The translations under genes and the position numbers were made by a program. 64,000 bases of DNA from Psammoneis japonica (lineage: Eukaryota): NCBI GenBank assembly GCA_008632985.1, contig QPGO01000014.1, positions 62,001-126,000 on the forward strand. Direction: 5' to 3'. Below the pieces are notes generated by a model that had not been told where the DNA came from, did no database searches, and saw only the letters and a program-made list of their open reading frames with translations. Shown here piece after piece: positions 1,163 to 52,945 of the stretch. Positions within the stretch are counted from its first letter, which is position 1, and each line of letters opens with the position of its first letter.

Positions 1163-2753
<1,591 letters not shown>

Positions 2754-30398: not shown

Positions 30399-31049
30399 TT
30401 TGCTCCAAAACTTGGCATGCCAACTTTGGGGCAAAACTTGGCATGCCAACTTTGTGCCAAAACTTGGCAAAAAAACTTTGGGGCGAAACTTGGCATGCCA
30501 ACTTTGGGGCAAAACTTGGCTTGCCAACTTTGGCACAAATTTGGCATGCCAACTTTGGATCAAAGACACTTGGCATGCCAACTTTGGGGCGAAACTCAGC
30601 ATGCCAACTTTTGGCAAAACTCGGCATGCCAACTTTGGCACACAAAACTCAGAGTGCCAACTTTGGACTTTGAAGCAAAACTTGGCATGCCAACTTTGTG
30701 GCAAAACTTCGTGTGCCAACTTCACTGCAAAAATGAGCACACCAACTTTGGGGCAAAACTTGGCTTGCCAACTTTGGCGCAAAACTTGGCACGCCAACTT
30801 TGTGGCAACACTTGGTGTGCCAGCTTTGTGGGGCAAAACTCAGCACGCCAACTTTGGCACAAAACTTGGCATGCCAACTTGGGGCAAAACTTGGCAAGCC
30901 AACTTTGGGGCATTGCTTGGCACTGGGATGAAACTCAGCCTTCCAACTTTTGGGCAAAACCCGGCATGCCAACTTTGGCACAAAACTCAGTGTGCCAACT
31001 TTGGACTTTGAAGCAAAGTGCGACATCCCAGCTTTGAGGTTAAACTTGG

Positions 31050-34000
31050 TGTGCAAACTCCAACACAAATGCAATGAAAGAGGGCAGCACAAAACTGAGC
31101 ACTCCACTCAATGTGAAGACAGGCACCTCTCTGGAGTTGCCCATGTCATTGAAATCAGCTGACACTGCACCAACTCTGACCATCACTCCATTTGTGGACA
31201 ACAACACAGGGAATCTAAACCAAAACAAAGATCTTCCACCTCGCCATTTCAGCTCTCACCCACTTCACTCCATTGGTGCTGGGAGCATGCCAAAATGAAC
31301 AAATTGCCCCAAGTTTGTCAAGCCATTGAAGTCATGCCAAGAGCCTCTGACCATCAACACATTTCAAGCTGTCTGCTCAATGCTGGCACAGACTTGCCGA
31401 AGTTGTCACTTTGCTGTTGACTCAAAACAGGAGAGTCTTTTTGTCCATGTTGGTTGCACCAAGGCAGCGTCAAAGGCAAGAACAAAAAAAACATTTCATC
31501 ATTTCCTGTTTCTTGCACACTTGCAAATGCAGCCAACCAGCTGTCAGTGCAGAAGCACAGTCCAGCGCCCAAACTGACCATTCGCAACTTGTCTGTTGAT
31601 GGACGCACCCACTGGAACCCATGTTGTCAATGCAAAGTTGTGACAGCACACCATTTCCTGACCAGCATGAGCTCCACACCAAAATCATTCTGGCAAGCTC
31701 CAAATGCAATGGGGCCACCCAAACTGATCACACCAAACATGCCATCTAAAGCTTGCCCAGTGAGTGTCTTTCCACATTTTCCCTGCAGCAACGTGTTTGC
31801 ATTGCCTTGAAAGATCTGAGCTGGCTCAGAACCACCACAAAGAATGTTTGCTTCTCATCCACAAAAGCACCCACAGAAAAAACACCTCTGGCATCTGACA
31901 CAGACATGGAAAAGCCAAAGCAATCTTCAGCAGCTTTTCTGTCAATGTCAGCCCCAAGATGGCCCCAGTGGTCAGCACTGGAGTTGCACCCAAAAAAGAC
32001 TTGAAAACACCTTGATCACTGCTGCCATCATCATCATCATCATCAAAATCTGCTCCAGCTGCAACAGCACTGCTGCTGACATTGAGAGACACAAACTTGC
32101 CAAAGCCTTGTCCACCCTCTTCTCATCTCACCAGCTCAAGACCATCTGCAACATGTTTCTGCACTGAACCAGAGCAATGCTTGTCAACAATTAAAAGTTC
32201 CACACCTTTGCCTGATGTTTCTGCCAATCTTCATTGCACATGAACATTGATTCTTGTCGTTGATGATGGCTGTCAATTCGCAAATCATTTGATTGATTTT
32301 TCTTGTTTTGAGTTGCCTGTTGTGCTTTTTGTGTGTGCGTTGTTAAACTTGTTAAGTTTGCATGCATTTCATCCCTTCTCTTTCCAATCGCAAGCTGTTT
32401 CCCTTCTGTTTTGCTCTGTTTCTGCCGGATCTGTCCTTTTTTCCCACTGCACACACCACAAGCCTCCTGCCAACCAAAAATCTGCCAACCACAATGGCAC
32501 ACCCCTGTTGCAATCCAATCTGTCCCAGTCAGATGTCTGACAACAATGACCAGTGTGCTCTCTGCCCACATTTCAAAGGTGTCCTCAGTGCGCTTCCTTC
32601 TTTTGTTGTGGCCTTGACAATGCATCTTCCTCTTGGTGCCTCCCAAGAACCATTCCCTTGATTCAAGCACCAAAGGATTCTTGTCCCTGTCTCTTCATGA
32701 TGGTGATCCATCCCACCTTTTTCCAGATGGCAGTGATCATGAGTTTCAGCCATCTGCCCACGGCAATCCCTCTTCCAATGAACTGCTGTCAAACCAACCA
32801 TGAAGATTGCGGAGGCTGCGGTGCTTCTCATCACTGCATTTCTGGCTAGCTTGCAAGGTGCATGGATGGATCCTCACCTCACACATGATGAGGCACTGCA
32901 GCATGGTGACTTTTCTGGGACTTCATAAGTCCAGAATCTCACCTGGCCTCTGAGGCACCTCAGATTGGAAAAATTCAGTTTCAGCCCCATGCACAGACAA
33001 CTGCTGCAAGGGATGTGGAAAGTGCTGCTGCACTGTTGCTCAGCTGGGTGAAGAAATCCAGCACAGCTGCTGTGAAGCACAGGAGTCCAAAGTGTTCACT
33101 TTTCAGAATGCAATGATTTCCAGAGCATTTCCATTCGATGATGATCAGAAACAGCCAATCCAAGAAAACACAATGCAGTGGGCATGTTGGGCATTTTGCT
33201 GCAAGGGAGTTGCTCAAGCAGCAACAACCTTTCAAGACATCAGCGCAATGCTTCACAGAGCATTTCTTTTAGAAGGAACCTGGGGTCAAGAGTTGCAGAA
33301 TAAAAACCCAGATTTTTCCAGAGCTGTGGTGAGTGCTCCTGTCATGCTGACAAAAAACAGCAGTGCTTCTAGTTGCAGCACAGTTGTCCCTGCTCTGGCC
33401 ATTTTTGCACTGCTCCTTGCCCTTGCTGTTCTCTGGTGGGCAGGCATTGTGAACATCCCAAAAGGATTCTTTGGTTTCCGTCACCTCTGACAGTGCATGT
33501 GCGGCATTTGTTTGACACCACTGATCCACAAAAGACACTGTTTGTGGTTCTTTTCACATTCAAAACTTCTCTGTTGGCAAAGGGACAGGCCAAGGGCATT
33601 CCACATCTCCTGCTTGCACCTCTTCCTCCATTTCTTTCATCATTTGGGTGTCTGCTTGGTCCAGGCATTTGTTGTGTTGCTGCTCAGCAATGGCGACATT
33701 TGAAACACACAATTCTTGTCACAACAAAAATCCTTCTGCTGTCAATCCTTTTGATCAAACCTCACCCACAGAATCAAAACAAGTGATTTGCAGGAAAGGA
33801 TTGACAATGGGGCAGCTGCAATGACCAAACAAACATTCATGAGATGAGAGAGACATTGGTGCAACATGACAAACAACACCGACATTTTGCAACTTGATCC
33901 TGGTCCTGAAACTCTGGTTTTCTTCCACACTGGCACCACACATTGCACGCCGGGATTGCATGCTTCTTTTTGTTGACTTTTTCTTCCATTTGGCTGGGCT

Positions 34001-37000
34001 TGGACAAGTTTGGCACATCATTGCTTGGTGACAGCAGCATTGCAACACACAGTTGTTGTCATCACAAAAACACTTTCTGCTGGCAATTGCTGTGACCAAA
34101 CCTCGCCAAGAGGAGCAGAACAAACAACTTGTTGAAAACAATTGTCAGCAGGACAGCCACAACAAGGTTGGCATGCAACAGACTGAAACAGAAATTTTCG
34201 CGGTGACAACACAAGAAGGGTTGCATTTCACTCACAAAAAATGCTCCATTGGATGGCCAAACAGACTTGCAGGGGGTCCATGTCAATTAAATGGGTCACC
34301 TGTGTGGCTCATTTTGTCCTCATTTTAATGCCAATCACATCAGATGCTCAACGCGCGATGTTGGAGTGACCCACATGTGGGCCACAAATTGGCCTTTTTC
34401 AATCACAACCCCACAAGAGGGGTTGTGATTGAAACTTGGGATGGCGCTGCACTCCGACATGGTGGGGATGGTTTGGCATTCAAACAACAATGACGGGCTG
34501 CCATTTCAGTTGCCTGTGTGGCTCACATTTTGTTCTCTTTTTAAACTCTCAAGAACAGCTTCATTTGTTTCCTTTTGCTTCCATTTTGGCTCAGCTCTCT
34601 GCCTTTGCTTTGCTCTGTCTCTGCTGCACCTGTCCCTTTTTTCCGCTGGATGCTGCACAACTCATCTTCCATGACAGGATTTGAACAAGATTTTAGTTCA
34701 TCACACACAATTGTGTGTGCTCCCAGTTCCACGCACGTCACACGATGCAATTTGCTTTTGAGCCACATGGCTCACAAGAACAATGACAGCAGCACCAACA
34801 TCACGAGACACCAGTCTTTCAGCTCCTGCAATGGTCTCTGCACGGAGACTCATCTGCTGTTTAGACAGCAACAAGGAGTCATTGTTTTCTTCCGCCCAGT
34901 CATCTTAAATTTCTGTCATTCCGATCTAACATCCACTGACAACAATGGCGTGCCCCTGTCACAATCCACTTTGTGTTGTCCTGGTTGGATGTGTGACAAT
35001 GACAACAACAACAACAACAACAAGCATGCTCTCCAAGACATTTTCAAAGGAATCTCTGGTGTTCTTTTTTTTTCATTCTGGCCTGAACCTTGACGATGAC
35101 TTTGGGAAGCACACCCTGCCCAGCGCTGCAGGAAGAGAAGCACTGGGGGCAGCAGGAAGAGCAGCTTAGATTTGAGCTTGCCAAGGCATGGTCTTTGCAT
35201 CTCATGAAGCAAGCAATGGCTCTGCTGCTTGGAAAGCCACTGCCAGATGACAGAGACTGGGAAGTTTGTTTCATCTTCACCATCACCACAAACAAAGACA
35301 ATGGCCAGAGTTCATCAGCCACACATCCTCAATTCCAAGGGGGTTCATTCTGGTGTTGAGTTTTGACAACATGTCTTGGTGTCTCCAGTTTGAGCAACAG
35401 GCTTGCCGGGTGGATGGTGCATGATGCACAGGCCAACGCCACTTAAGAAGCTAAAATGGAGAATGTGGTGGTGTCCCCATGTCCCAGCAAACATTTGCCA
35501 AATGCCAAGCCAGATCATCATCATCGCCACAAATGCACATTGGTTTTGAGTTGCTGCCTGCATGACATGCACCCCGAATGCACTCAGTCTGCATTTGTTA
35601 AATGGGTTGGCCCAATTGTGGTGTCTTTGCACTCTTGATTTGGGAAGCTCAAGCCTTGTCTTGGGCAGCAGCAGCGCCATTGCATGATTCCTCTACAAAC
35701 AAGAAGATGCCCAGATGCACAAGTTGTGGAAGCATGAGGCCCACAGATGTGGAAAAGGAGGTGCGCAGTTGTCTTGGGATGGCATTGGAAGACTCCAGTG
35801 GGTTGCCAGGGACATGCTGACAGCCATGGCTGGGGAGCAAATGCCTTGTCTTGTGTCAATGCAGCACCTTGTCTCTCTAACATGACTGGCTTTGGCCCAG
35901 CCAGCCAACCTGCAGAGACAAGAAAACCATCTGTGTGGTGACTGTGCAAGTGCTCCATTGTCTTGGGATGGCATTGGATGCAATGACAACAATGGTTGGG
36001 AAGTGAAGGCCTCGTCTAGTGTCAACACAGCACCCTGTCTTTTTGACATGACTGGGTTCTTTGGCCCAGCCACCCCACCTGCAAGGACAAGAAAACCATC
36101 TGTGTGACAGTGCAAGTGCTCCGTTGTCTTGAGATGGCATTGAATGACTCCATTGGGTCCCAGAGGATGCAATGAAAGCAATGGTTGGGAAGCAAAGGCC
36201 TTGTCCAGTGTCAACACAGCACCCTGTCTCTTTGACATGACTGGGCTCTTTGGCCCAGCCACCCCACCCACAGAGACAAGAAAACCATCTGTGTGACAGT
36301 GCAAGTGCTCCGTTGTCTTGGGATGGCTTTTGCTGACTCCGTTGGATCCCAGAGGAGCCAATGACAACAATGGTTGGGAAGAAAAGGCCTTGTCTTGTGT
36401 CAGCGCAGCACCTTGTCTCTCTGACATGACTGGGTTTGGCCCAGCCAAGAACCAATTTGCAAGAAAGACAAGGGAACCATCTGTGCAACAGCGCAAGTGC
36501 TCAGTTGTCTTGGGATGGCTTTTGGTGACTCCGTTGGATCCAAAAGGAGCCAACAACAACAATGGCTGGGAAGCAAAGGCCTTGTCTTGTGTCAATGCAG
36601 CACCTTGTTTCTCTGACATGACTGGGTTTGGCCCAGCCACCCCACCCACAGAGACAAGAAAACCATCTGTGCAACAGTGCAAGTGCTCAGTTGTCATGGG
36701 ATGGCTTTTGGTGACTCCTGGGGAACCATCTGTGTGACAGCACAAGCACTCAGTTGTCTTGAGATGGGCACAAGAGACTTCATTGGGTCCCTGAGGAGAC
36801 AAGAACAACAATGGTTGGGAAGAAAAAGCCTGGTCTTGGGCTGACGCAGCTCCTTTTCTGTCTGATGTGATTGGCTTGCTTTGGCCCAGCCACCTCACCT
36901 GCAGAGACAAGGGAGCTTTCTGCACTGTGTGACAGCGCAATTGTGCAGCTGTCTTTGGATGGCCTTGGGTGCCTCCATTGTGTCCCAAGGGAGCCAATGA

Positions 37001-39900
37001 CAACCAGGGCAGGGAGTCAGTGAATGGAAATTTATTGTGTTCCCTGTCAACCCACCTTCAAGTTGCACACTTTCTTTGCAAGGTTGGTCTCTAAAGTTGT
37101 CATTTCAGCAGCATGAAGGGTCTGTTTCTGAGCTTTCTGGAGAGAGGCAATTTTGTTTTTGGCAGTGGCAATTTTTCAATCGTGGGCTTGCACTTTTGCT
37201 GCAGCTGCTTGCACATCTTTTTGTTTTGTTGTTTTTTGCAAAGGCCATGCATCCACCAGCAAAACAACAGCCACATTCTGCATTCATTGCCAGATGTCAT
37301 TTTTGGGTTGATGGCGCAGGTGGCATGGTGTTTGGAGGCTTCAAGCAGCAAGGGAGTCTTGCAGGAAGGGACTTCATCATGCTCCTTGAGAAAATCAAGA
37401 TCTTCTTGTTGAACTGCAGGGGAGCAGCTGTCAGACACATCATCAAAGGCATTGGCTTCTTTGTTGGTGGAGGCTGCAGCAGCAGCAGCAGATCTTGGGT
37501 CACTGGCCAATGGAGCAGCTCCAGACAAAGAGCCTTGAGGTCACCAAGGGCTTGTCCTGGAGCCTTGCCTGGGCTGCCTGGGAGGAGGACCTCAACCTCA
37601 CACTTGAGCACCACAAGCACCACCTCAACCATGGCCACCGCCGATGGTGCTGGCATGACTGGATTGTTGCGGCCAGCACCTTGTGGGTTCTGCTTCTTCC
37701 TTTTTCTTGGCGACAAGGTCAATGAACACACCAAATGGCAAAAAGGCCAAATGGCAAAAAGGTGTTGATTGAACAACAATGGTTGGGAAGCAAAGAAAGA
37801 AAGGCTTTGTCTCATGTCAATGCAGCACCTTGTCTCTCTGACATCATGACTGGGTTTGGCCCAGTGCAAGCTGTTGCACAGATGAGACAAGAGAGCTTTC
37901 TGTGCTGTGTGACAGCGCAAGTGCCCAGTTGTCTTTGGATGGCCTTGGGTGCCTCCATTGTGCACCAGGGGAGCCAACAACAACCAGGGCAGGGAGTCAC
38001 TGAATGTAAATTCATGGCATTCCCTGTCTCTTGCTTGGATGTAAAACCAAGAGAGAACAGAAGAAGAGCAAGACCCACCTTTGAGTTGCCCACTTTCTTT
38101 GTGAGGTGGGTCTCCAAAGTTGTCATGTCACTGGCATGAAGGGTCTGTTTCTGAGCTTTCTCGAGAGAGGCAATTGTCTTGTTGGCAGTGGCAATTTTTG
38201 AACACACCAAATGGCAACCAAAAAGGTGTTGATTGAGGTCCTGGAGCTGGCAGTGTGTGTGGCATGAGTGTGAAATTTTCAATCTTAACAAGAACACATC
38301 AATGTGACAAAATCAAACTTGTTGAATGCATGTGCAACATTGTTGACTGAATGATTCATTGAGGTGATTTCAACTGATGGTCGGGCTTGCATTTTAGCCA
38401 AAACGCAAATTGTTGCTCCCTCACAAGACACAAAAAATGCAAACTCAAGTTGCAAGTGATGTGTGAATGTGAGAGTGGCAGTGACAGGCAGTGGCATTGC
38501 AGATGGGACAGAATGAAATGCAGGACACAAGGTGAGAAAGAGGAAACAAGTGGCAAAATGCATGGAGTTGGGGCACACAATGCAAATGACTGACACTTGT
38601 GCACATCTTTGCACACAGACATCTGGGCAGTGACCTGAGATGCAAAGGAAGACAGTGACCGGGAAGGGCACAAAGGTGAGCAAAAGCAGTGCATGAGACA
38701 AGATTGTGGGAAACACAAGGCATGTGTAAAAACTGATCATTGGCACAAAGTTTTCTCCAGTTGCATGCAACGCTTTGGCCAACCAAACAGAATGAATGTG
38801 AGAGACATCATTGGAGGATGACATCATTGCCTGGTTGTGCAAATGATCATGGAGAGAGCAAGAGTGGTTGCAAGGGAGGACACAGGGACCAAAACATCAC
38901 ACCCATTGTGTGAGAACTGCAAAGGACAACAGGAAGTGGTGGAATGCAGGAGAAAAAAAAAGGAAACAGGGAGCATTGTTTGGTGTGCAGTGCAGAAATG
39001 ACAAAATGGAAAAATCAAACAGAAGAGAACAGACAGCATGGAGCCAACCCACAAACAGGTTGTTGAGAAAACTGAACATCATCATTGTCAGAAATGAACA
39101 ATGAAAGAATGTTGTTGCAAAACCATGGTTGTTAAGATGGAAACAAAAGCAAGTGACAAGTTTTGTCAGCTGTCATTTCCCACTTGGAAGGTCAGTTTGG
39201 TTGCTGACGGATGCAAAAACAATGTTGAAACAAGCAGACACATGAAATTGTCAAGAGTGTGTGTGTGATGCAACTGATTTTCATCAAATGTTAAATCCCA
39301 CTTGGAAGGTCCTGATGATTGTTAGAAACTCTTTATCAACAATCATTGGGCAATTGTCAAGAGCACAGAATTCTCAACAAGAGAACGTGGATTCTGAACA
39401 AGAGCAAATGTGTTTTCCAGATGACCCACAGATGCCCACAATGAAGTGGGGTTGGCAGAGTTTGCATCTTGATCTGCTCGTGCTGCCACAAGACTTTCAT
39501 CACATGACAATGAGGCAGTGGCTGGTGCCACTTTGAACAGCACAGCTGACTTCGCTCACTGACAGTTGGCGGTGTGGGCCTGTTTGCACAGCTTGAGAAT
39601 GCTGGCCCAGTGGCGGGCTGTTTTCTGAGGTGGACATGAGGGTCTCTGCAAGTTGTGTTGGTTGTTGCCTTGGCAACAATGACAAAGAATGACTGCGCTG
39701 GTTGTTGGCAAAGACAGCAGCAATCAGGCTGGTCAAGCAAAAGCAGCAAGGGTGGCTGTTGGGAGGCAGACAGACTCTGGCGATCAACAGGTGTGTGTGG
39801 CACTTCTTTTTCAAATTCCCCATTCTGTGTGGCAACTCCAGCACTGCTTTGCACAGCACACAGGAGCTGACTCCAGCTCACTGACAGCTGGTGGCAGAAT
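31050..39900. mobile_element. Unclassified degenerate TE-like DNA with internal duplications
   Basis: TpA/CpG depleted. Related segments at about 32400-32620 and 34610-35090, and at 36800-37180 and 37770-38200. Confidence 0.5.
35640..37030 (+). repeat. Imperfect tandem repeat of ~170-190-bp units (about 7 copies)
   Basis: GACAAGAAAACCATCTGTG..GTTGTCTTGGGATGGC..CAATGGTTGGGAAG..GACATGACTGGG..TTTGGCCCAGCC recurs at about 35915, 36085, 36273, 36465, 36651 and 36904. Confidence 0.88.
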
Positions 39901-42507
39901 GCTGGTCCTCAGCTGGCAATGTTGCATGGGAGCTAAGACCCAAAGAACAAAATGGCTGCTCAGCTCATGAAGCACTGGTCTGTGTGCCTGTGCCTGCAAA
40001 CACACATGTGGTGCAAAAACTCCATGTTCTCACACATGCACGGGAATGTGTGAAATTGTTGGGGTGAGCCTCTGTTGTGATCATGGACCACACTCTCATT
40101 GCAGTTGAGTGATCTGAGTGTGCTGCACAGGCAGCACCAGACTGACTGGCTTTCTCACCTGATGCAGAGAACTTGCAAGAGAAGAGAGGGGCAGAGTGTG
40201 GACCCCAGCACCAGAACACCCACGTTGTGCACAGCCTTGTCTCAAAGCAAATTTGGTCTTGTTGGCAGTTGCAAATTTTGCACTGCCCTTCTGAGTTGTT
40301 TAAATGACAGCCACTTTTCTGTGCAAGACAGTGCTGGACTCACCTGCATGTTTCAACACCAGGCTTGCTGCAGAACACTCAACCAACCATGGCATCTTCT
40401 TCTGTCAATGATGGCAGCCATGCAGGCAACAACCCCATTGACGCCACTGTTTCTAATGATGTCACAGTTGACCAAGCATCCAATGAGCCTTCCTCGAAGC
40501 TGAAAAAGTTCAAGCATGAGGAGATCACTCTTTGGTGTTTGTCACATGTGGCCAGGAAGTCACATGCAAGCCCGGGACATCAGTCACCTCCTGCCTCCAA
40601 GTTTTGAAACAGACTCTGTGTTCATGTGTGGTTGGGAGTCCCAAGGTTAAGATTTTTGACAATGAGAGCCAATGGGCAACTGAGATCAAGGTTTCTGAGT
40701 GGGTGGCCATGCTCTGTCATGAACACCACTTTCAGATCAGATTTCTGCCATGCACAGTGGTGAATCTTGCTCTGCAACTCACCACACATGTGAAACAGAA
40801 TTCTTGCAATGACCCCTCTCCAAACATGCACATCAGCTGACACTGTGACTGATTTGTTTTTGAAAGATTGGGGTGACTTTCCTGTCAAGATGTGTCAATT
40901 CTGGCCGGCGCTGACCACTGTTTGAGCTGATGACACAAAAAGAAGGTGGCTCCAATTCATGTGGGGTTGTGGCTGCTTGCTGTTCAAGTCCTGCAGCCTG
41001 GGTTTCACAAAGGTGCTTCCAAGAAACATCCCGCTCATGTTGTGTTGGCTAAAATTTGTTGTCCTCCCCCCCCTCCCTTTCATGATTCCAGACACTTTCA
41101 AAGAATGTCAAAAGGCACCTTGCAGAAAGCCCAGGCAAAATGCAAACAAGTTGCTGCTGAGAGTGCTGCATGACATGAGAGGCTGGCTGAAAAGATTGCA
41201 ACATCAGAGCAAAATCTTTTGAACTGTGCACTTTGTTGGGGCTGTTTGCATGACCACTGGAAAGATGTTGTTAATGTCATGATTTTCAAAAAGCCAGGAA
41301 ACACTGCAATTCACCATTTGCATGTGACACACATGTGCAAAGCAGACTTTCAACTTGTCTCCAGTGTCAAGTGGTGTGCCTTGGTGGCACAGAACATGGA
41401 ACATTGCCAGTTGCACAACCCAGGCATTTGCTGCACTTTTCCTTTCTTGAGTGTCAATGCTCCAGTCTGTCTTGAAGAGCTGGCACCTGAAATTGGTCAA
41501 GCACATTGGAAAACAGCCATCCACAGTGATGATGATTGCACATCATGTTGTGACTGCAACATCCCAGCTTTGGCTGCACTCAAAAGTTGCAGCAATGTGT
41601 GCTCAAAGAGGTTGTGCAAGTGTCAAATGGCACACTCCATGGAGTGAAATGCTGACTGAAAACAGCTTTGTGGCTTTCTCAGTTGTCTTGTTCTCACTCT
41701 CAAAGGTGAGGCAGCAGAAATTCTCTTTTCTGCAAGAGCCAGACATGGTGCAACTGCTTTTGATCAACAGGCATTCAGAGCATTCTTTGAGACTCCTGAC
41801 CAATCTCTGTCCTTGCAACTGTTCAAGGATGCATTGATGATGCACCTGAGAAGAAGCAAATGACTTTTTTGCTTCCCCTCAACTGTCTGCTTTGGAATTG
41901 GCTCCAAGCACACTGCAGGAGGACAACCAACTTTAGCACACACCTTCTCAATGCAGCAGGTCATGAGCTTGGACCACCAAGCATTCCTTTCACTCCATTT
42001 GGTGGATGTTCTCTGATGATGGTGAACCCTGCATTGAAATGCACTTGGCAGATCAGCCCACCAAGCACCCAGCACCCAACTGTTGGCAGGTGCACTCTTC
42101 ACACAAGACACTTGGTCATTGCAAAACCATGATGGGAACTCAGAAGTTGAGCTTGCTTCCCTCAAGAAAAAGATTGATGACACAACATGGTTCCTCCGGC
42201 TGCACTCTTTTGATTGATGCAAGGTGTGGGCTCATCACCTTGCCTGCCATTTGTTGTTGGTCACATGTGTTCTTCCAAATGCTCGCTTCTCTAAAAAGAG
42301 CTTTTGGAGATCCAACAGAAAGCAATGCTGTCATTTTTGCTGAGTGTGGTTGCAGCTGCAATGCCAAGAGAGACACTCCACATGCCACCCACACTCTGGG
42401 GGCAGAGGCTTCCAATCATTGGATGCCAAGCATGGCATCACTCAAGTTCTGCAATTCCTTCAACACTGGCATTACACAGGCCAACCTCAAGTTTTGTCCC
42501 AAATCAT

Positions 42508-45500
42508 TGTTGGAGCATCTGGATTTGGGGTGTCAGAGTGTGGTCCAGTGAGTGATTTTGCATGAGGAGAGTCTTGCCATCATCTGTCCCTTGCCTTTGA
42601 TTTCCATCTCACTCTTTAGATTGAATCACTGGATTTGCACGATTTGTCATTCGGTGTCACTGGGCTCCAGTCATTGTGCAAATTTGAAGATTGCACTGAT
42701 GCCTTTGGCAACCCACAGTCATTGCAGATGACCAAGGCAAAAGTGTGTGAAGCAGCAAAGGAAGCCCAGCAGGGTTCCCTTTTGGCAACATTGACTTGCT
42801 GGCTCAACACCAACTTCAAAGAGTTGCTGGCATTGTGTTCAGTGCCTGCAGACACTGACCTGCACACAGTCAATTGAACACTGAACACCTGCACAACAAG
42901 CAGCAGAGGAGTTGGCAGAACAAATGACCAAGGCCACAGCTGTGGCATGGGTGACAAGAGTCACAGGTCCTCCAACCTGAAGAAGAAGACCAACACTGAG
43001 AAGCACTTTCAACCTGAGACAAAGTTTCATCCTCCACAACTGAACAGCGACACTTGCAATGCTGGATGTGAAGACATCAAGGAGAAGATCATCTGTTGCA
43101 TGCAAAAGGTGTGTGAACAAGGCACGCACATGGTGAGGTCTTTGGAAGACATGAAATGCAAGGATTTTAATTCCACAACACCTGCCTTTTTAAACAAAAA
43201 GTGCACACGGCAACCATGCCATCAGACACAACAACCATGGGATGCCAGAATGCACTGAAAAAGAAAGAGCACAAAGACAAGGAGCTGGAACATGAGCACA
43301 AAACAGAGCCAAGTGACTGCCACAAGAAAGCAAAGCAGTTCAAAGAGAACAAAACAACTGCACTCACCAAGATTTGTGTGGTTGCTGCACCAAGCAAATG
43401 AAGCAGAGAGTGCAAGCCAATCCCAGTTGCCCCAAAAATGGGGACACTGACCAGGTTGCTGAAGCTGATCCAGCCCCTTGCACTTGACTCAACAAAAGGT
43501 TGACACCCACTCCACACACTTGCCAAGGCACCCTGAAGAACATCCCAGATGTGAGGCAGCAAGAGCATGTAAGATGTTGAATGGTTGCCTGTCAAGATTC
43601 AAGAATCAGCAAGATGCTGCAAATGAAGGACTGGGAAACAGAGTGCAGGGCAGTTTCATCTCCAATGCCAAGGAGTGCCAGGAAGGAAGCACTGCACTTC
43701 ATGACAAACCACCCAAAGAAGTCAGTGTTGAAGAACTGGATGACATTTCTGTTTGTGAAGACCAGCAATGATTGCCGCTGCAAGAGCTTGAAGAAGAGCT
43801 TTGACCCATCCAAAGACCCTGGAGAAGGCATTGGATGCACTGCAGAACAACCTGAAAGACAACGATTCTTGCAACTGACACAAAAGGAAGATCTGACAAT
43901 GTGAAGGACCAGAGCCATGCCCAGAAGAGCAACCAGAATGATGCCACAGTGTGTCACTGCTGATGCAAATTAAAAGCAAGTCCCCAGACTGCAAGCATCA
44001 AAGCAACATTGTGCGCAACAGCTGGTTCAAGAACACTGAAAAAAACAGACATTGGGGGACAGAGTTCACACACAAGCCTGAGTTGGGAATGATGACCACT
44101 CATCAGTGGACAGTGACAACATGAGTGCCAACACTGCCAGATCCAACCAATCAACCTGCTCAGCCAAAGCAGGAAAGCTGCATGTGGACAAGATCATTCT
44201 CAACAATGGCTCTGCCCTCAGCACAACAGCAAGCCAGGGACCAGCACACAATGTGCGACTGGCCAAGATGAAGATTGATCAATCCATGAACACTGCTGGA
44301 TGAGGGGAAATGAAGCTTGGAGCAGAGAACATGATGGCAGACATCCTCAGTTTAAAGGATGTGAAGAGCAAGCACTGTGCAACATGTGACAGCAGAGTGG
44401 CAGACAAGCTCTGATTGCTGGACAAGAAGAGTGGCAAACAAGTCACAGTGTTCAGAGTCAATGACATCAGGCACTGTGTGCCTTTGTCCCAAGCCAGAGA
44501 TTCTTCAACCATGCCAAAGAACTCCAAGAAAGCAAGTCACATGTGAGCATGCTGTTGAAGAAAAAGAACAAGAGAGACAAGAAGCACAGGAGTGCATCTG
44601 GAACTGTGGCTCCAATGGTGGAACCAATTTCCATGGGCCACACCAAGAGGGAGGCAGCAAGTTCTGAGTGAGCACTCAGACTGTGCTGCAAGGCTGGAAC
44701 ACCCAGTGCAAGAAATTTCGTGCAATTTTTGCATTCAAATCAGATGAAGAACTTGTCCATCATGCCCAAAAGATGTAGACAGGATGCTGGCTAATTGGGG
44801 TCAACCAATGAGTGCATTGAAAGGAAAGACCAAGCATGCATGTTGGTCCCATGAGAGGAATGATGCCACAGCTGTCCTGTCTGAGACACATGAGAAGCAG
44901 AAAGAAGGTGTGATCCTTTGAATTGATGTTGCAGAAGTGTGCATGGTCAAGACACTTGATCAAGTTCTAGTTGAAAGTGGTGCTGAAGTCCAAGAAGCAT
45001 GTTGATTTGCACAATGCCCTGGACATGATTTTCTGACAGTGCAGCACAGCTTTGTTCAAAATTGACTTGTTGAGTGTGATCCCAAGTTCAAGGTTGAGCT
45101 GGTGGAAGTTGCTGACAGAGCATGCCATTGGAGCTGATGTTCACAATCACCAGTGACCACATTTCTGAGGTTGAAAGGAGCATTGAGACCATCAAGGAGC
45201 AAACTCAAGCTGCACTGCACACCATCTGCCATGCAAGATGACACCCAAGTTGATGTGTGAGCATGCCATGATCAAAAACACTGTCATGTCAAACATTCAC
45301 CCACAGAAAGAACAAGGAATTTCCCACACTTGCAGCCCGCACACTGTTGTGCAATGAAGGAGCCTTGACTGTGACAAGCACTTCATGTTTGCCTTTGGTG
45401 AGTTTGTCCTGTCTCATGTTGAGAGCAACCCAATGAACACCATGGGTGCACAAAGCACTGGCAACGCACATCTGTGACCATGTTTTGGTGTTCCCAAAAG

Positions 45501-48500
45501 GGCAGCCACTGCACCACAAGCCTGCACATGGGCAAGCTTCTTCTGAACCCCTGCAAGTGCGCCGCCACACCCCTGCCCAACATGCGCACAAGTGGTTGAG
45601 AAGATGGCCACAGCACAAGGCATCAAAGATTTTAAATTTGTGAGCAAATGCAAAGGCAACCCACATGGTGCCGACTTTGCTGCAGGATGGAGTGGAAAGT
45701 GATGAAGACTCGCAAAGATGCAACACCAGAAACATTGCAACCAACTCAAAAGATGACAACTGTGAAGATGAAGTGGGTTTGATGAAGAGCATGAAGAAGC
45801 AAATGAGATCCCAGCCAATGAAAGGTCTCCATCCCCAGTGTGCAATGTGCAGCCACTGACAAGAGTCAGTGCATCACGGCAACGTGTTGCAGCCTTTAAA
45901 TGTCACAAAGGGCGTGACAAAAATGACCTTTTGTCTGCATGCACACTGCATTGTGAATTCACAGCGGAGTGGTTCATCGCAACCATCAGGCAGGAGGCCA
46001 GGGGTTCGAAACCCTGAGAGGGAGTTGTCTGCAGCAACGTTGATCACTGTCGAACGCGCAAAACTCTGTGCAGTTCTGTGTGTTCCTTCGTGCGCACCCA
46101 CACTGTTCTGCCAAAACCGTGCAGTGTCAGCACACGTTGGTAAAGAGCCGCATGGACGCGTGACACATGGGGAGGAGTGCAACACACAGCCACCAACAAG
46201 AGTTGATGTGTCACGGCGACGTGTCACAGCCTTCAAATGTCACAAAGGGCGTGACAAAAATGACCTTTTGTCTGCATGCATGCTGCAAATGAACAGCGCG
46301 AGAACCAGCAAGTCAAGGATGAGCACTGTGATGGCTGCGAACATGCTGAAGAAGACCAGGACAGCAAAGAAACAGAAGAAGACAATGAGCACCAAGAAGA
46401 TGCAAGGTGAGAAGGAAGAAGACCAGAGGAAGAGGCAAGTGCCATGTCTGCCAGAACAGCCAAAGCTGGCAGAGCCTTCCAAGCCACCACAACACACACT
46501 CAGAAGCAAACACAAGAGCACCACATGCCAAGAGAAGAAAGTTTGATTTGCAGGAGCGGCACACCATGAATGCAGGCTCAAACACTGCCGCCATTTGTGA
46601 ACAAACAACATTCCCAACACAGAGGAAGATGCCAAGAAGCTCCACACAGAAACAGCAGCAGTGCTGGCACAAGTGATGTGCAAGATTGACAACTGACTCT
46701 GACCAGGGGAGGGCATCTCCTTTGCCCAGCAACATTTGCCACATGAAGGCCCAAAAGCATTGACCAGAAGGGGCATGGTGCCTCAGAGAAGGAGATTGAA
46801 CAACTCCACAACAGATTGTGCTTTGCACCAACATCAATTGAAGACATGGCTCTGAAAGATCCAATGCTGTGATTGCCTTGATGTTCCTGATGGAAAAGCA
46901 AGATGGTCATGTGAAAGGGCGAGTGGTTTGCAATGGAGAAAACAGACTGGAGAATGGTTGGACAAGGATGACCCAGACAGCCCAATGGCATCATTGGAAG
47001 GAATGATCCCTGTGGCCCAGAAATGTGTCCAGAACTTCAAGGTTTGACCAACCACAATTCCCATCATTGCCGTTTTTGTTCTTCCAGAACAGCCATTGAC
47101 CATGAGCTGGGAGATCAACAGTGCAGACAAGCCAAACAATGAGCTCAGCACCTGTGCATTGGGATTACAAAGCAGTGGCCACGGAGCTGCTGGCATGAGT
47201 TTGGGGACCTGGGAGATGTGTGAGAGAGATGCTCTTCACAAAAAAGATGTGCAACAGGAGTGGAGAGTGACTGCAGCAAATGGAGATGTGGTTGCAACAA
47301 CAGAAGGAATCCAGAACAAGGAACTCCAAACAGCAAACACTGACATGGCTTGATGGCTCAGAAGCAGGAACATAAAGAGCCAATGAGTGATGACCCAAAC
47401 ATCCATCATGTGATGTTTTAGATTTTGCATCAATTCATTGTTGATGCAAAGGTGGAGAGGGAGGGCCACATGTTTGCTTGCAGCAAGATCCCACCCCTTT
47501 GACCAAAATGGAGTGCCCCATGGAGTGTGAAAGTGCAGAGATGTGGAGCACACAAATGTGCGAGCATGTGTCCACTGCTGCAACGATGTTTTCCTTGCAC
47601 AATGAATGGAGCACATCAGTTGAATTTTAATCATGTGGTTGGAACAAACACATGACCAAGGAACATTGGCAGATCATCAGAAGCTGAGCCACAAGACAAG
47701 GCAAAGCATGTTTTCATGACTTCAGAGAGCACAATGCAAGCAGTGAGTGAGTTAAAGACAAGTGCATTGCTGGATCAGACAACAAGAGACAGGGATGTCA
47801 AGCTCTGTGGTTGGCCCCAGACAAACATGACATCAGACAATTGAGCAAAACATTGATGGTCAGTTGTTGTCCTGCCCGCCTGTGGCATGGACACTTCTGG
47901 GGTTTGTGGTCCCCTTGTGAAGCTCAGCACCAATCATTCCAAAGATCAGATGAGTCATTGTGGCAGGATGGGGACAGCATTGTCTGTGACTCAAAGAAGC
48001 TGGCATTGTTCTTCCACCATGATGTCAGTCGAGCCAAGCCCATGTTGGAATGGACTTGTCACCGGATGGAGTTCTTTGAGTTGATTCCTGAGGCAACCAA
48101 TGGTTGGGTCATGGACCCACTTGATGGTCCATGTGGCAGAGTTCCAAAGAAAAGGATCAGCCGCACCTGTGTTGGGTGTTTTGTGGAGAGTGTGCAAGGA
48201 ATTACAGACTCATTCAATGATGTGATTGACTTCTCCAATGAGGGATGATCTGCGCCATTCTGACTTGGAAGATGTCAGTGCTGAAGCAACAGAAGTGGCT
48301 GATGACAATCTGGTTGCCATTTCAAAAGGGTCCACGCATTCCTCAGTGCCCATCAGACCAAGCTCACATCAATGCAAGTGGCAGGAGTGTGTTGGAGCAT
48401 CCAGATTTGGGGCATCACAAGGTGCCCAGGCATGTTGAAGGAAAGACATTTTGACTCTTGATGTGGTCCACTGAGTGACTCTGTGTGTGAGGAGAGTCTC

Positions 48501-48726
48501 ACTGTCGTCTGCCCCTTGCCTTTTTTATCTCACTCTTTGGAGTGAATCATTTGGTTTGTGCCATTTGTCATTTGGTGTCAGCAGGTGCCTGTTGTCACAC
48601 AAATTGCAGTTTACATTGACATGTTCAGCAACCTGCAGCCATGCAGATGACCAAGGCAAGTGCATCAAACGGCACAGGAATCCCACCAGGATTCCTTTTT
48701 GGCAACATTGACTTGCCAGCTCAACA
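42508..48726 (+). mobile_element. Degenerate Ty1/Copia (CoDi-like) LTR retrotransposon
   Basis: LTRs 42508-42809 and 48390-48726 (TGTTGGAGCATC...GCTCAACA). 5-bp TSD ATCAT/ATTGT. Protease IILNNGSALS (44193), integrase HISEVERSIETIKEQ (~45158) and RT start LMFLMEKQDGHVKGRVVCNG (46878), in PR-IN-RT order. Confidence 0.88.
45841..46287 (+). mobile_element. TRIM-like mini LTR element (110-bp LTRs, 227-bp internal region)
   Basis: Direct repeats 45841-45950 and 46178-46287, both TG...CA. Polypurine tract GGGGAGGAG directly before the 3' repeat. Flanks AGTG/AATG (imperfect 4-bp TSD). Confidence 0.8.
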
Positions 48727-51700
48727 ATTGTGGTCACTTAGATTCAATTTTATCTGGGCACTGGCGTCAGTTTTCTGAAAATGGAAAACACACTCCAAGC
48801 AAGTTGCCTCATTCCAAGTCTCAATGACTCACGTCTCTTTGCCCCTTTTTGTCTTGCACAAATGATGCACACATCAATTTTGACAACACTGGTGTTCCTG
48901 TTTTGAGATTGAGAAGTGTGCTGGGTGAACTGTTGCCTTTCACATCTCCAAGTTGTCACCATGTCCAACATTGCTCCACCCAACGGTCATTCTGTGGACA
49001 GTCTCAAACTTGATGGCCAGCACTCTCACCTCAACAGCACTTCCTCTTTGAACCCTGTCAAGCAAGCATTTCCATCTGCTCATGCTTGGAAACAGTGGTG
49101 TCAAGCACATTCCTTGTTTTGCAAAGATGACACCTTGGAATTGCAGCATCCACTGGGTCAGTGGGCAGTGCCCACCACAAACAAGTGCATGTGTCCTTTT
49201 TGACACATGTTGCAAGAAGTCCAAAGAGCTTTTGCACATCAGGTTGAACACTGAAGTTGACATTTTCCCTCTCACAGATGGCACAGCAGACTCTGTGTCC
49301 CCTGGAGTCTGTTCTGGATCCTTCCCCATTGGCATCTCCAGGCATGGTTCTTGCCACAAGCAAAGTCTTCTGGCCAATTTGGTCTCCTGGTGCTCCAGTG
49401 TCTTTGCCACCAAATCTTCCTGTTCCCAACAATTTCTTTGAAATGTTGTCATCCTTGCCAAAGTGGGAGTCTTTCCTGATTGCCAATCTCACCTTGCATG
49501 TGTGAGCACTCAAAATTGCAGAATCCTTGTCTTTGTCAAGGGCTGTGGCAGGCAGTGATGGGTTGGTGATTCACTTCCACAGCACCTTTGGCTGGATGCT
49601 TGCCATTGATGGTTCTCTCCATTGGCTGATTGCACTGGTCCAGTTTTCAGGTTCTGTTCTTCTTCCTGTTGAGCTGAGGCAATTGGTTTCATGCCCTTTT
49701 TTCAGCTTCTGTTCAGACTGATGGGTTGTTGTCAGAGAGTGTTTGTCCCAGGAGTGGATCTGTGCCCATGACAACTCCTCATTGGTGCAGAATGTTTCTC
49801 ATTTTTAGGCTGCATCTCCCTCCTGGACAGTGCAGAGTTTTCAGATGCAGGCTGGGGCACTTCTGCTGTTGCAAGAAATTTGCCAGCTCCAGATTGGGGC
49901 ATGGCACACAAGACATTTCACTCATGTCAGCAGGTGCTGGAACTGGGAACTGCCATCTCTCCCTGCAAACTTGAAGCTTGAAGTTGAACATCTGAGCAGA
50001 CCAGCTGGTGAGGAATTGACAAAAGGCTCCTGCACTGGCATGACACTTTGTTTGCTTGCTCCTCCTGTCCCACACTGCTCTGCAAACTTGGTCTGATTCA
50101 ACATTTTTCTGTCACCTCCAAATTCAAGTTCACACTTCAGCATGACTTTTCCAGCCCCACATTGCAACAATGGTGCATGCAGGAGAAGTGTGGTTCTTGG
50201 TCATGTGAAGTTTTTGACTCTGTTGATTGGACTGTGCACTCCAAATTCATGTCTGGTGACTGGTGACATCAACAAGGGGAAATGAATCAGCACCATTGGG
50301 CTGGTGTGCACAACTTGTTGCCAATGAACAAGGCACTGTTCATTGCTGCAACCCAAGAACTCATCCAGACAGCTCTGTTCATTGTCTGCACCTGATGGAA
50401 GACAGAAGTCACATTCTTTGATCTTCCCACAATGAGACTTGGCACTGGCATTTCTTTGACTTCAGGGCCTTCACAAGAAATGCTGCAATGTTGACACATC
50501 ACCTTCCCCATGCAACTTCCTCTTGTTTGCTCTTGAGTTCTGGATTCACAATGAAGTTGTCCACCCCAGATGAGCTTCATCACACAGTGTTCTCACAGTC
50601 TTTTGTTCTCAGGACAACACTGGGCAGTGCCATCCTCTGTTTGGTGGTCACTTTTCTTCCTTGTGGAATGAAACTCAAACACCACATCTTCTGACTGGCA
50701 GCCCACATCACAGCTTTCCTCTGATGGCAAATGGCCAGATTGTCGGCCCCATGATCGGTGGTGGCTTTGTTTGGCCGCAATGATGGCAGGACCTGTGGGA
50801 TTCCCACAATGATGCCATTCATGGCCACAATTGTGAAACTCAGAAATCTTCTCAATGCCAAGATGCTTGGCTGTTTTCATTGCACACATGCTTTGACTTG
50901 TTGCTCAAGGGTTTCAGGCAAAAAGAAGGTGAAAGAATGCACCCTGCATTGCAGAGAGAGGAGTCGCTTTGTCAAAGCAACTCTTGCCTTTTTGTTTTGT
51001 TGCCAAATTTGGTGCACAGTGTGGCATCAAAATGACGTGCCTTCTGTCGTGATGGTTGCATCAAATGAGCAAAGCAGCATCACACTGAAAGTCTCATGGG
51101 GGCTTTTTGTTTGGGGCGGTGTTGGACAGAATGTCGTGACCATCACATTTTATTTGACGTCGTTGAATTGCGTTGAGCACAGCACAACACTGCTGTCAAC
51201 ACACTGATGGGTGTTTTGCACGCTGCCATAGACTACCTAGAAGTTACTTCCATGATTGACTGTCATCATTGCATGCTGTAGATGCTTGGACTTGTTGCCT
51301 AAGGGCTTCAGGCAAAAAGGTGAAAGAACACATCCTGCCGATTGACAGGTGGCTCTAGTCAGTCCACACAAAATGTGCCATGCTGGAAGTCACTTCCATA
51401 CTTAACTGTTTTCCAGCATGCTCAATCTTGTTACGAATGGGACAAAATTCTGACGAAGTCTGCAGACTGTTTTGGCTGCGTGGTGTTGGTAACAGCAAAA
51501 GAGCTGAGCTTCAAAAGAAGAATCTAGCTGCTGGGAAATAACATCTGTAAAGCTAGGAAATAATGTCTGTAAAGCCTCGTAAATTGAAAATGAGGTTTGT
51601 CCAATCCTTTCGCGGCAAAGACGCAGACGAGTCAGACATTGTTGATGCCGTTGGTAAATCCTTACGTTCAAAGTTGATGAAGTTAGTTGAAGTAGCTATA

Positions 51701-51782
51701 GAAAAGCGAGACTCTGGAGAGATGTTACTGTGGAAGTAATGAAAACTCCGGTACAAGATACTTCTATATACTGTAAGTACGC

Positions 51783-52586
51783 CTAAGAATCCCCAGCAGA
51801 CGCTGATTCAGCCTCAACTTCATCAATGACAGCTTGAGCCTCCGTCTGAGTCAAAATGTGATGAACACAATCACCACTATCATCCACCGTCATGCGGAAG
51901 AGTTCCATCTTTTCCGCAGCAGCCATGGTACCATCCATGGTTTTGTTTAGTACCTTGACTGCCAAACGGAGCGCTTCTGCCACTGTGGGCATGTTGGGCG
52001 AATCATCGTCATCTTCCTCCATGGCATCATCTCCACCGCTGCTCTTTCCGTATTCTGTCTTGAGCAGAGATTTGCCGGCTTGGTTGTTGGCTCCAATTAC
52101 AGTGGCCTTCCAACCACTGTAATTACCAGAAGGATCACTCTGATACAATTGGAATCCGTGTTCCGTATCATATCCCGCAAACAAAAAAGCCACACCAAAC
52201 GGCCTCAGTCCACCGTACTGCGTGTAACTTTGCTTGTAATTACAAACATGCTCCACCAATTGCTCCACGGGAATGTTTTCTTGATACTGATAATAGTACC
52301 GCCCGGCTCGTAGACGCGCTTGATCAATCAAAATATTAGCATCCGCCGTGAGACCCGCCACGTTGCAAGCCGCATGTGGACAGAGCTTGTAGGTTTTCTC
52401 GGACGACTTGGCGGGAGCCAGCAGCCCCGACGTGATGCGACGTTCGCTCGCCATGACGATACCGTCCTTGGCGAGAATGCCCACGCACGTACCGGCATTG
52501 TTAATGGCTTCAATCGCATACTCCACTTGATGGAGACGGCCTTCCGGTGAAAAGGTGGTGGTACTGGAATCGTAGCGACGTGCCAT
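51783..52586 (-). CDS. PSMA4: 20S proteasome subunit alpha type-4 (alpha3)
   Basis: MARRYDSSTTTFSPEGRLHQVEYA, YTQYGGLRPFGV, QLYQSDPSGNYSGWKA. Confidence 0.97.
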   Translation of the reverse strand: MARRYDSSTTTFSPEGRLHQVEYAIEAINNAGTCVGILAKDGIVMASERRITSGLLAPAKSSEKTYKLCPHAACNVAGLTADANILIDQARLRAGRYYYQYQENIPVEQLVEHVCNYKQSYTQYGGLRPFGVAFLFAGYDTEHGFQLYQSDPSGNYSGWKATVIGANNQAGKSLLKTEYGKSSGGDDAMEEDDDDSPNMPTVAEALRLAVKVLNKTMDGTMAAAEKMELFRMTVDDSGDCVHHILTQTEAQAVIDEVEAESASAGDS

Positions 52587-52945
52587 TGTCACTGATAATC
52601 TGTATGTTGTTGTGAACTGCTGAAGATCGTTGTCGACGAAATGACAAAAGATTTCAAAGCAAATCCTTATTCGAAACCTTTCCGTGACTATGCCAATTTT
52701 GACAATTTTCCTTATTCAAAATGAAACGAAGCACGGCGAACGAGGAAGAAAGTTCTCGGTGAATCGAATGGGTCCGGAGAGAATAGGGAGTCGAATGGGT
52801 CCAAAAATAATCGTCTCTCCTCCGGCCGCCCTTGCACATCGTTTCGACAGAAGATGATCTCCTCAACGCGACGATGACGTTGCCGACCTGTGTTTTCACA
52901 CAACATTAGCGAACGAACCACAATCTACAACAACTGCACCAGAAC

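Follow-up and report, generated by a model that had tools for sequence, protein, structure and literature searches.

Flank-dependent depletion of TpA alongside CpG loss in a non-coding island of a Psammoneis japonica contig

We examined a 64,000-nucleotide stretch of contig QPGO01000014.1 from Psammoneis japonica (positions 62,001 to 126,000 of the forward strand), referred to below as the window, in which a long non-coding island at 28900-51225 has lost nearly all of its TpA and most of its CpG dinucleotides. The TpA that remain in the island stand mostly between a 5' pyrimidine and a 3' purine (YTAR, where Y is C or T and R is A or G) and never between a 5' purine and a 3' pyrimidine (RTAY). 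We propose that two processes produced this DNA, namely a flank-dependent loss of TpA to TpG and CpA by an enzyme that reads the surrounding sequence, and the decay of CpG, and we give this explanation a probability of about 0.7. The uneven distribution of TpA over flank classes, which a first-pass annotation of the window had noticed by eye, is confirmed as real and highly significant.

The G+C content is 47% across the whole window, and its dinucleotide content is split in two. As a baseline we used the genic DNA of the same window, comprising about 35.5 kb (1001-21300, 22400-24900 and 51300-64000), where the observed/expected ratio (o/e) is 0.54-0.58 for TA, 0.95-0.97 for CG and 1.14-1.20 for CA and TG. 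In the main island, the corresponding values are 0.05 for TA, 0.16 for CG, 1.79 for CA and 1.86 for TG. The island includes the whole of 31050-51200, the interval to which the first-pass annotation had confined its claim, and extends beyond it: the 22.2 kb of 29001-51200 hold 77 TA (o/e 0.05), and every 1-kb window between 29001 and 51000 has a TA o/e of 0.00-0.10. A second block depleted in both dinucleotides lies at 24940-27210, where 25001-27000 contains 5 TA (o/e 0.04) and 25 CG (o/e 0.22) and the right part is a 26-bp satellite. The third, short block (21345-22305) has sparse CG and two TA only, at 21477 and 22089. At 1-935, a block cut by the left end of the window is depleted in TpA only (for 1-1000, TA o/e 0.08, CG 0.81, CA 1.54 and TG 1.45), and the process acting on TpA may have reached it more recently. 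A dense cluster of CG is seen at 890-933, just inside the right edge of that block. The block edges at about 24940, 27210, 28900 and 51225 are sharp to within about 100 bases, with the housekeeping genes outside them, and TA and CG are normal from about 51229 rightwards.

Compared with genic DNA, the island has a deficit of 36.9 TA and 44.5 CG per kb, together 81.4, and a surplus of 82.1 TG and CA. TpA and CpG have been lost by transitions into TpG and CpA, and this mass balance indicates the conversion of normal-like DNA rather than an intrinsic composition. The G+C content remained constant (47.8% in the island and 47.3% in genic DNA) because the loss of TA raises it while the loss of CG lowers it. 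The two strands are affected alike, as TG is close to CA in every 1-kb bin of the island and (TG-CA)/(TG+CA) ranges from -0.22 to +0.09. The depletion is common to the 26-bp satellite, a tandem repeat family with units of 166-189 bp, and stretches without internal repeats.

For 31050-51200 (20,151 bases), the first-pass annotation had reported that only several dozen TA were left, mostly YTAR, and that GTAC, ATAT, GTAT and ATAC were absent. We found 68 TA where about 810 would be expected from the genic density of 40.3 per kb, and divided them into YTAR, mixed (RTAR or YTAY) and RTAY sites. YTAR sites account for 49 of the 68 (TTAA 23, TTAG 11, CTAA 11, CTAG 4) and mixed sites for 19 (ATAA 3, GTAA 5, GTAG 1, TTAC 4, TTAT 5, CTAC 1), leaving all four RTAY tetramers at zero, together with ATAG and CTAT. 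The four sites that had been given as examples are present as well (TTAA at 31040; CTAG at 32847, 36017 and 44968). The genic classes (447 RTAY, 734 mixed and 249 YTAR) would predict 11.8 YTAR, 34.9 mixed and 21.3 RTAY sites among 68 (χ2 145, p 3e-32). When the island's own flank base frequencies are used, the probability of at least 49 YTAR among 68 is 5e-16 and that of no RTAY is 3e-9. The excess of YTAR also holds after normalisation to a first-order Markov background, which gave an o/e of 0 for RTAY, 0.57 for mixed and 2.29 for YTAR sites, against 1.41, 1.03 and 0.62 in genic DNA, so that the direction is reversed. The genic NTAN bias is opposite to that of the island, YTAR being the rarest class (o/e 0.41) and RTAY the commonest (0.72), and the genic scarcity of YTAR is probably due to avoidance of the stop codons TAA and TAG on both strands of coding DNA. 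The four depleted stretches beyond 31050-51200 repeat the island's pattern with 14 YTAR, 5 mixed and no RTAY sites among 19 TA; the counts are 4 YTAR and 1 mixed in 25000-27200 and 2 YTAR and 1 mixed in 1-900, and both TA of the third block are YTAR. The remaining TAs are evenly spaced, at about one per 300 bases. Relative to genic DNA, survival in the block 28801-51200 falls from 0.53 for TTAA, 0.40 for TTAG and 0.36 for CTAA through 0.13 for GTAA, 0.10 for CTAG, 0.09 for TTAT, 0.07 for TTAC, 0.05 for GTAG, 0.045 for ATAA and 0.015 for CTAC to 0 for the other six tetramers. By class, survival is 0 for RTAY, 0.05 for mixed and 0.35 for YTAR sites, bearing out the predicted depletion order of RTAY > RTAR = YTAY > YTAR, and uniform depletion across the NTAN contexts is rejected (likelihood ratio 147, 3 df, p 1e-31).

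To describe the loss, we used a half-site model in which each adenine of TA is lost at a rate set by its 3' base. This additive model fits all 16 tetramers (deviance 14.4, 12 df, p 0.27), with loss exponents of 0.22 for a 3' A, 0.99 for G, 2.40 for C and 2.98 for T, which ranks the contexts as TAT ≥ TAC > TAG > TAA. The preference between purine and pyrimidine flanks suggested in the first-pass annotation is therefore right in its order, but the effect is graded rather than binary, with survival of CTAG five times lower than that of TTAA. The observed counts match the second-order Markov expectation N(aTA)N(TAb)/N(TA) (TTAA 25 against 28.7, CTAG 4 against 4.7, GTAC 0 against 0.6), which shows that the two flanks act independently of each other; because it has the flank marginals built in, this normaliser cannot test the context. 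The context reaches the +2 position, where A is found in 59% of the 154 surviving half-sites as compared with 754 of 2,860 genic half-sites. Half-site survival is 0.49 for TAAA, 0.21 for TAGA, 0.12-0.15 for TAAC, TAAG and TAAT, 0.10 for TAGC, 0.067 for TACA, which makes up 11 of the 14 surviving TAC half-sites, and 0 for TACT and TATA. The best-protected full site is TYTARA.

Two short elements with terminal inverted repeats (TIRs) between the second block and the main island have TA and CG near genic levels and give a view of the process at an earlier stage. The first resembles a miniature inverted-repeat transposable element (27203-27963; 49-bp TIRs at 27203-27251 and 27916-27963, 85.7% identical), is inserted in the satellite and is only partly mutated at TpA; the second (27961-28895; 46-bp TIRs at 27961-28006 and 28850-28895, 95.7% identical) adjoins it and likewise interrupts the satellite. 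In contigs assembled from a public DNA run (X1), the first element has a summed word depth of 850-1600 against a baseline of 47-83. We compared the window with the X1 contigs using the 40 best-supported of 295 rows of differences and assuming that TA is the older state. Over all places, 248 of 292 differences are transitions. Among the 40 best-supported differences, 24 fall in 27262-28740, and 23 of these 24 are exchanges between TA and TG or CA, the window carrying TG or CA at 15 sites and TA at 8. As fractions of the available sites in the elements, the hits amount to 11 of 27 for RTAY (41%), 10 of 35 for mixed (29%) and 2 of 16 for YTAR sites (12.5%). The trend has a one-sided p of 0.025; a direct comparison of RTAY with YTAR by Fisher's test yields p 0.086, and a χ2 test over all three classes p 0.14. 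These hits lend modest support, partly independent of the end-state counts, to an order of RTAY > mixed > YTAR. Candidates for further copies of the elements, sought among metagenome contigs with a 21-base degenerate TIR motif, were rejected as chance matches because the three loci returned (L001-L003) share only the motif with the window. In a second run from the same sample (X2), the TIR elements and a gene at 24.0-24.5 kb are covered at high depth and the depleted island hardly at all, the uncovered parts not being evidence.

The young elements also bear on which base is attacked. The first-pass annotation had named the A of 5'-TAY-3' as the preferred target, and the class order fits such a target. 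Its strand assignment is not established: in the RTAR and YTAY sites, ten hits can be polarised, five on the strand whose A has a 3' pyrimidine and five on the other. If 80% were expected on the 3'-pyrimidine strand, a 5:5 split would have a probability of 0.03; with its small sample and assumed polarity, this split leans against a strictly single-strand TAY reading. Because an A→G change is the same event as T→C on the complementary strand, and because the additive model has the corresponding symmetry, attack on the A of TAY, attack on the T of RTA and recognition of the RTAY duplex fit equally well.

The loss of CpG behaves differently. A count of NCGN contexts, made in parallel with that of NTAN, revealed a weak context effect of another kind, with a range of about 2-3 fold, loss exponents of 0.42 for C, 0.90 for G, 0.92 for T and 1.29 for A, GCGC and ACGC as the best-kept tetramers and ACGA and TCGA as the worst. 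This difference in context, together with the TA-only depletion of block 1-935 and the TA-only differences in the TIR elements, separates the losses of TpA and CpG into two processes. About half of the differences in the depleted blocks, among the 40 best-supported of the 295, are exchanges between CG and TG or CA. Low CG with an excess of TpG and CpA in the island, and alternation of CG with TG or CA between satellite units, are features of CpG decay. According to the consulted parts of one account (PMC9998398), the DNMT5a-dependent CG methylation of diatoms falls mainly on transposable elements, and RID-like DNMT4 enzymes, whose function is not known, are encoded by many diatoms. With methylation directed at such elements, decay of methylated CpG is the natural reading of the CpG half.

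Much of the depleted DNA is repetitive. The 26-bp satellite (unit AAACTTGGCATGCCAACTTTGGGGCA) was found by Tandem Repeats Finder (TRF) in 22 copies at 26609-27182, and by TRF, self-BLAST and a unit profile at 28907-29832 and 30406-31004, with a spacer between these two arrays. Across 72 units, the variable positions are alternations of CG with TG or CA at unit positions 6-7 and 9-12, and the founding unit was probably rich in CpG (for example, GGCGCGCC where GGCATGCC now stands) and has been decaying by CpG transitions. The 166-189-bp tandem family extends over 35761-38202 (units at 35818-36718, diverged units at 36724-37015 and 37771-38202; TRF, BLAST and alignment), and the summed X1 word depth over 35.3-39.3 kb is 750-3400. 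A 270-bp direct repeat, 75.5% identical by self-BLAST (42539-42809 and 48462-48726), bounds a possible relic of a long terminal repeat (LTR) element on the plus strand at 42539-48726, within which 43-47 kb is A-rich on the plus strand (AT skew +0.16 to +0.33). This weak candidate matches nothing in Pfam even when stops are read through; nothing above chance level came from scans of 42801-48502 (three read-through frames) or of 46800-47701 (three frames, E up to 10). A Ty1/copia-like reverse transcriptase suspected by eye in frame 1 near 46890 was dropped, as the domain scan gave no support. Pfam likewise found no domain above chance in the 138 stop-free segments of at least 78 aa in the depleted blocks, of which 122 lie in 31-51.3 kb. 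The X1 depth, summed over contigs, is 5-500 times the baseline in 27.3-30.7, 32-39.3 and 42.7-44 kb, which suggests many similar copies in the sample, although summed depth is not a copy number. The highest value in the stretch compared, 32,310 against a baseline of about 63, belongs to 34672-35338, which may be a very abundant short repeat. Reads are apparently cut at 34990-35031 and 32015-32054. A direct repeat across the right edge of the island (50863-50947 and 51252-51338) is too short and diverged to polarise changes.

Our preferred explanation is that non-coding, largely repeat-derived DNA has undergone two locally confined transition processes that both end in TpG and CpA. The first would be an A:T→G:C change specific to TpA, giving TpG on one strand and seen as CpA on the other; the second would be ordinary CpG decay, most likely by deamination of 5-methylcytosine (5mC) in methylated repeats. 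The TpA process would have gone near to completion, fastest at RTAY, at an intermediate rate at RTAR and YTAY, and slowest where the 5' flank is T-rich and the 3' flank A-rich. The remaining TAs, about 3 per kb, would then be either the slowest substrates or recent G→A and C→T arrivals that persist in slow contexts. Such an enzyme would read about 6 bp around TpA and would be directed to silenced or repeated DNA, and deamination of adenine to inosine is the leading candidate for its chemistry. The first-pass annotation had argued for an enzyme rather than compositional drift, and we agree that a context effect of more than 50-fold is hard to obtain without a sequence-reading enzyme. The TpA loss is best explained by an enzyme whose sequence preference extends beyond the dinucleotide.

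For the chemistry, hydroxylation of thymine is a serious rival, although we consider it unlikely. A hydroxylase of the TET/JBP type would attack the thymine of 5'-RTA-3' on silenced repeats, converting it to 5-hydroxymethyluracil (5hmU) or 5-formyluracil (5fU), which would mispair with G and result in T→C. The symmetry described above applies here in full: the data do not distinguish an A→G change from a T→C change on the opposite strand, g(x)=f(complement x) leaves the additive model unchanged, and the ten polarisable hits in mixed contexts are divided 5:5. In dinoflagellates, 5hmU replaces T preferentially in TA and TC, is enriched in repeats, overlaps with 5mC and is made by TET/JBP homologues, as far as the consulted parts of that report describe (PMC11572971), and its overlap with 5mC on repeats parallels the co-located losses of TpA and CpG. 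However, TpC as a substrate would raise CC, and although the o/e of TC falls from 1.15 in genic DNA to 0.91 in the island, CC is flat (0.89 against 0.87-0.91). Coupling to 5mC is also not obligatory, given that block 1-935 has lost TA with little loss of CpG, and the literature consulted on 5hmU and diatoms does not document 5hmU in diatom DNA.

It seems very unlikely that the loss was context-free and that the remaining TAs are mostly new arrivals, with the YTAR and TYTARA bias marking where G→A and C→T changes create TA. The near-complete loss makes an equilibrium between creation and destruction plausible, and the CTAA at 35878 contains TA in one of seven aligned repeat units and TGA in the other six, so that this TA seems to have arisen recently by a G→A change and not to have survived. 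Not all of the remaining TAs need be survivors, as the first-pass annotation had taken them to be, and some are probably new G→A or C→T changes. Context-dependent loss is needed nevertheless, because the transition precursors in 31050-51200 (1,100 RTGY and RCAY, 2,420 mixed, 1,091 YTGR and YCAR) are split 24/52/24% over RTAY, mixed and YTAR contexts, against 0/28/72% for the observed TAs, and because the abundance of CA and TG precursors varies by no more than about 3-fold among well-populated half-site contexts, whereas TA/(CA+TG) varies by more than 30-fold. Furthermore, the losses in the young TIR elements themselves favour RTAY.

Error-prone patch repair, in which T:G mismatches from deamination of 5mC recruit non-canonical mismatch repair and a polymerase-eta-like enzyme that removes TpA near methylated CpG, would bring both losses into the same blocks as transitions ending in TG and CA, as is seen here. 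We regard it as highly improbable. The error signature of polymerase eta is WA→WG, which predicts a loss of ApA, and the polymerase-eta signature is disfavoured because ApA is not depleted: the o/e of AA is 1.20 and that of TT 1.31 in the island, not below the genic values of 1.13-1.22 and 1.12-1.15. Block 1-935 and the TIR elements, moreover, lose TA without loss of CpG. In the chlorarachniophyte Bigelowiella natans, nearly all de novo changes fall on TpA and C→T changes do not accompany them, according to the consulted text of a 2026 preprint (bioRxiv 10.64898/2026.01.13.699255).

Equally remote are RNA hyperediting of the ADAR type followed by reverse transcription and re-insertion, an intrinsic or selected TA- and CG-poor composition of a foreign element, and a sequencing artefact. 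The sharp boundaries are insertion-like, but the depletion spans satellites, tandem repeats, unique DNA and DNA-type TIR elements in situ. ADAR prefers a 3' G, and here TAG is the second-most protected triplet (3' G exponent 0.99 against 2.4-3.0 for Y). ADAR-type editing is disfavoured because of this protective 3' G and because TG is close to CA with no transcript-strand bias; its 5' T requirement agrees with the data, as ADARs favour a 5' U according to the consulted part of the same preprint (bioRxiv 10.64898/2026.01.13.699255). A foreign composition conflicts with the mass balance and with the differences between copies at TA and TG or CA. An artefact of base calling or assembly is argued against by the X1 contigs, assembled from accurate reads, which match the island with few differences at a word depth of about 63-68x (one contig of 3,411 bases, for instance, departs from it by 12 letters and 6 gaps); nanopore base calling was rejected because exact-word contigs at about 63x reproduce the sequence, a bisulfite-type artefact because it cannot produce TA→TG, and retention of stop codons because there is no coding signal.

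Several points weigh against the explanation by a flank-reading TpA process and CpG decay. Its rates and chemistry are deduced from an end state, and the genic DNA of the window stands in for the ancestral composition of the island; a similar starting distribution is obtained from the TIR elements, which are partly mutated (27 RTAY, 35 mixed and 16 YTAR). The TA at 35878 is probably not the only one that arrived late, as set out above. The copy differences comprise 23 sites from the 40 best-supported of 295, with an assumed polarity and a χ2 p of 0.14, and X1 may be the source sample of the assembly itself and thus no independent confirmation of the sequence. The description as repeat-derived is grounded in the satellites, the tandem repeats and the TIR elements, and in the summed depth of contigs, which does not rise above baseline in 24.7-26.7, 30.7-32.0 and 39.3-42.7 kb; the depleted-block segments and read-through frames scanned yielded no domain of a transposase, a reverse transcriptase or a virus. 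The two-process explanation is supported by the counts and their mass balance, by a graded hierarchy of flanks that act independently, by the equal treatment of both strands and by the TA to TG/CA differences between young copies.

The ordinary DNA of the window carries long, intron-poor open reading frames (ORFs) for eukaryotic housekeeping proteins, including a mitochondrial carrier, ankyrin repeats, a GT7 galactosyltransferase, a zinc alcohol dehydrogenase, a proteasome alpha subunit, cold-shock domain (CSD) proteins and a Tho2 fragment. The named top homologues of the mitochondrial carrier are all from diatoms (61-69% identity). Just beyond the right edge of the island lies the proteasome alpha subunit gene (51783-52592, minus strand; Pfam Proteasome 4.5e-48, Proteasome_A_N 3.6e-14). 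The CSD gene is present as a tandem duplicate at 4409-5317 and 5446-6338, both on the minus strand and about 79.5% identical over 584 bases. An AT- and TA-rich intergenic stretch at 11837-12770, overlapping the sole bin with a TA o/e above 1 (12001-13000, 1.11), contains an exact 50-bp direct repeat (11837-11886 and 12721-12770) and has several short palindromes at 11852-11999. An ORF of 739 aa at 13051-15270 on the minus strand has weak matches to MTS, a small methyltransferase domain (1.2e-5), and to DUF7059 (1.3e-4, under the Pfam cut-off), and we see no reason to link this methyltransferase-like ORF with the TpA depletion. Rfam and tRNA scans of the window gave no matches.

Locally targeted hypermutation of TpA to TpG and CpA has been reported once before, in the 2026 preprint on the chlorarachniophyte, and we found no report of diatom TpA hypermutation in the open-access literature searched; the window adds a new lineage and a substrate profile. 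It suggests that the TpA process also operates in a diatom-like genome, that it can come near to completion on repeats, and that it works beside CpG decay with the G+C content unchanged. As a consequence of the unchanged G+C content, islands of this kind would be invisible to scans based on G+C content or on indices of repeat-induced point mutation (RIP), and annotators of repeats and genes will fail on such DNA, as shown here by the failure to recover any protein domain. With the flank hierarchy, the TpA activity has its first quantitative substrate profile, which allows a direct biochemical test and helps to choose between candidate enzymes, whether an ADAT2/TadA-like deaminase, a TET/JBP thymine hydroxylase or an unknown one. 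The biology of genome defence and base-editing technology would both have an interest in a natural enzyme that has a defined motif and edits A:T pairs in chromatin. More tentatively, and as a possibility that we would not call probable, diatoms might have a GC-neutral counterpart of RIP, in which silenced repeats are scrubbed of the two self-complementary YR steps, of CpG by methylation decay and of TpA by a dedicated enzyme that reads approximately a hexamer, is fastest at RTAY and is blocked at TYTARA, the TpA arm being the same ancient system as in the chlorarachniophyte and part of an innate DNA-editing defence as old as the stramenopile-alveolate-rhizarian (SAR) group or older. If this were true, the flank hierarchy would be an enzymatic fingerprint by which the enzyme could be identified, and this enzyme might be the first natural deaminase known to edit adenine in chromosomal DNA.

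Among known systems, RIP in Neurospora and other ascomycetes converts C to T mainly at CpA, creates TpA and lowers the G+C content. The process described here resembles RIP as a defence-like, locally confined transition hypermutation of repeats with a dinucleotide context that makes elements unrecognisable. However, RIP itself is excluded because it makes TpA, whereas here TpA is destroyed (o/e 0.05, with CpA at 1.79) and the G+C content is conserved. Methylation-driven CpG decay would account for the low CpG (o/e 0.16) and the excess of TpG and CpA in repeat DNA; it explains the CpG half only and cannot remove TpA. The tRNA adenosine deaminases TadA and ADAT2, and the base editors derived from them, target an adenine preceded by U or T (U33-A34), the native site of bacterial TadA being UAC, and the natural enzymes act on tRNA loops; TAT is, to our knowledge, not a natural A34 context. 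The T-A requirement is thus shared, and UAC matches the fast TAY class, whereas the fastest context here is TAT. The footprints of ADAR and APOBEC enzymes in animal retroelements are likewise clusters of transitions with a neighbour-base preference, fixed in copies of mobile elements. Unlike the strand-biased action of those enzymes on RNA or reverse-transcription intermediates, the changes here are symmetric, occurred in situ and affect DNA-type elements and satellites. The 5hmU of dinoflagellates shares direction at T, preference for TA, location in repeats, overlap with 5mC and a place within SAR, but in the consulted parts of that report it is an epigenetic mark not shown to be mutagenic (PMC11572971), and no effect on TC is evident here.

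The closest comparison is with B. natans. In the consulted portion of that preprint by Mettrop et al. (bioRxiv 10.64898/2026.01.13.699255), A→G or T→C changes, all at TpA, make up 230 of the 231 de novo mutations counted in an integrated nucleocytoplasmic large DNA virus (NCLDV) and a virophage, the rate in mutation-accumulation lines is about 6e-7 per site per generation (range about 1e-7 to 1e-6), 124 clusters are poor in TpA and rich in CpA and TpG, and ADAT2 is named as a candidate enzyme. As in B. natans, we observed changes of TpA to TpG or CpA (23 of the 24 differences listed for the TIR elements) on both strands, windows poor in TA and rich in CA and TG, and confinement with sharp edges to discrete regions that are not host-like. 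A term search of the preprint text returned no occurrence of 'context', 'flanking', 'trinucleotide' or 'CpG', and in that text the flank hierarchy is accordingly not described. Unlike the chlorarachniophyte, a rhizarian, the lineage here is a diatom-like stramenopile; the targets comprise satellites, tandem repeats, TIR elements and DNA that could not be classified, and no viral gene was recognised among them in the frames scanned. CpG is co-depleted here, unlike in the B. natans account, and the depletion of TpA is far more complete, with an o/e of 0.05 as compared with the Rho of 0.45 given there for an NCLDV insert.

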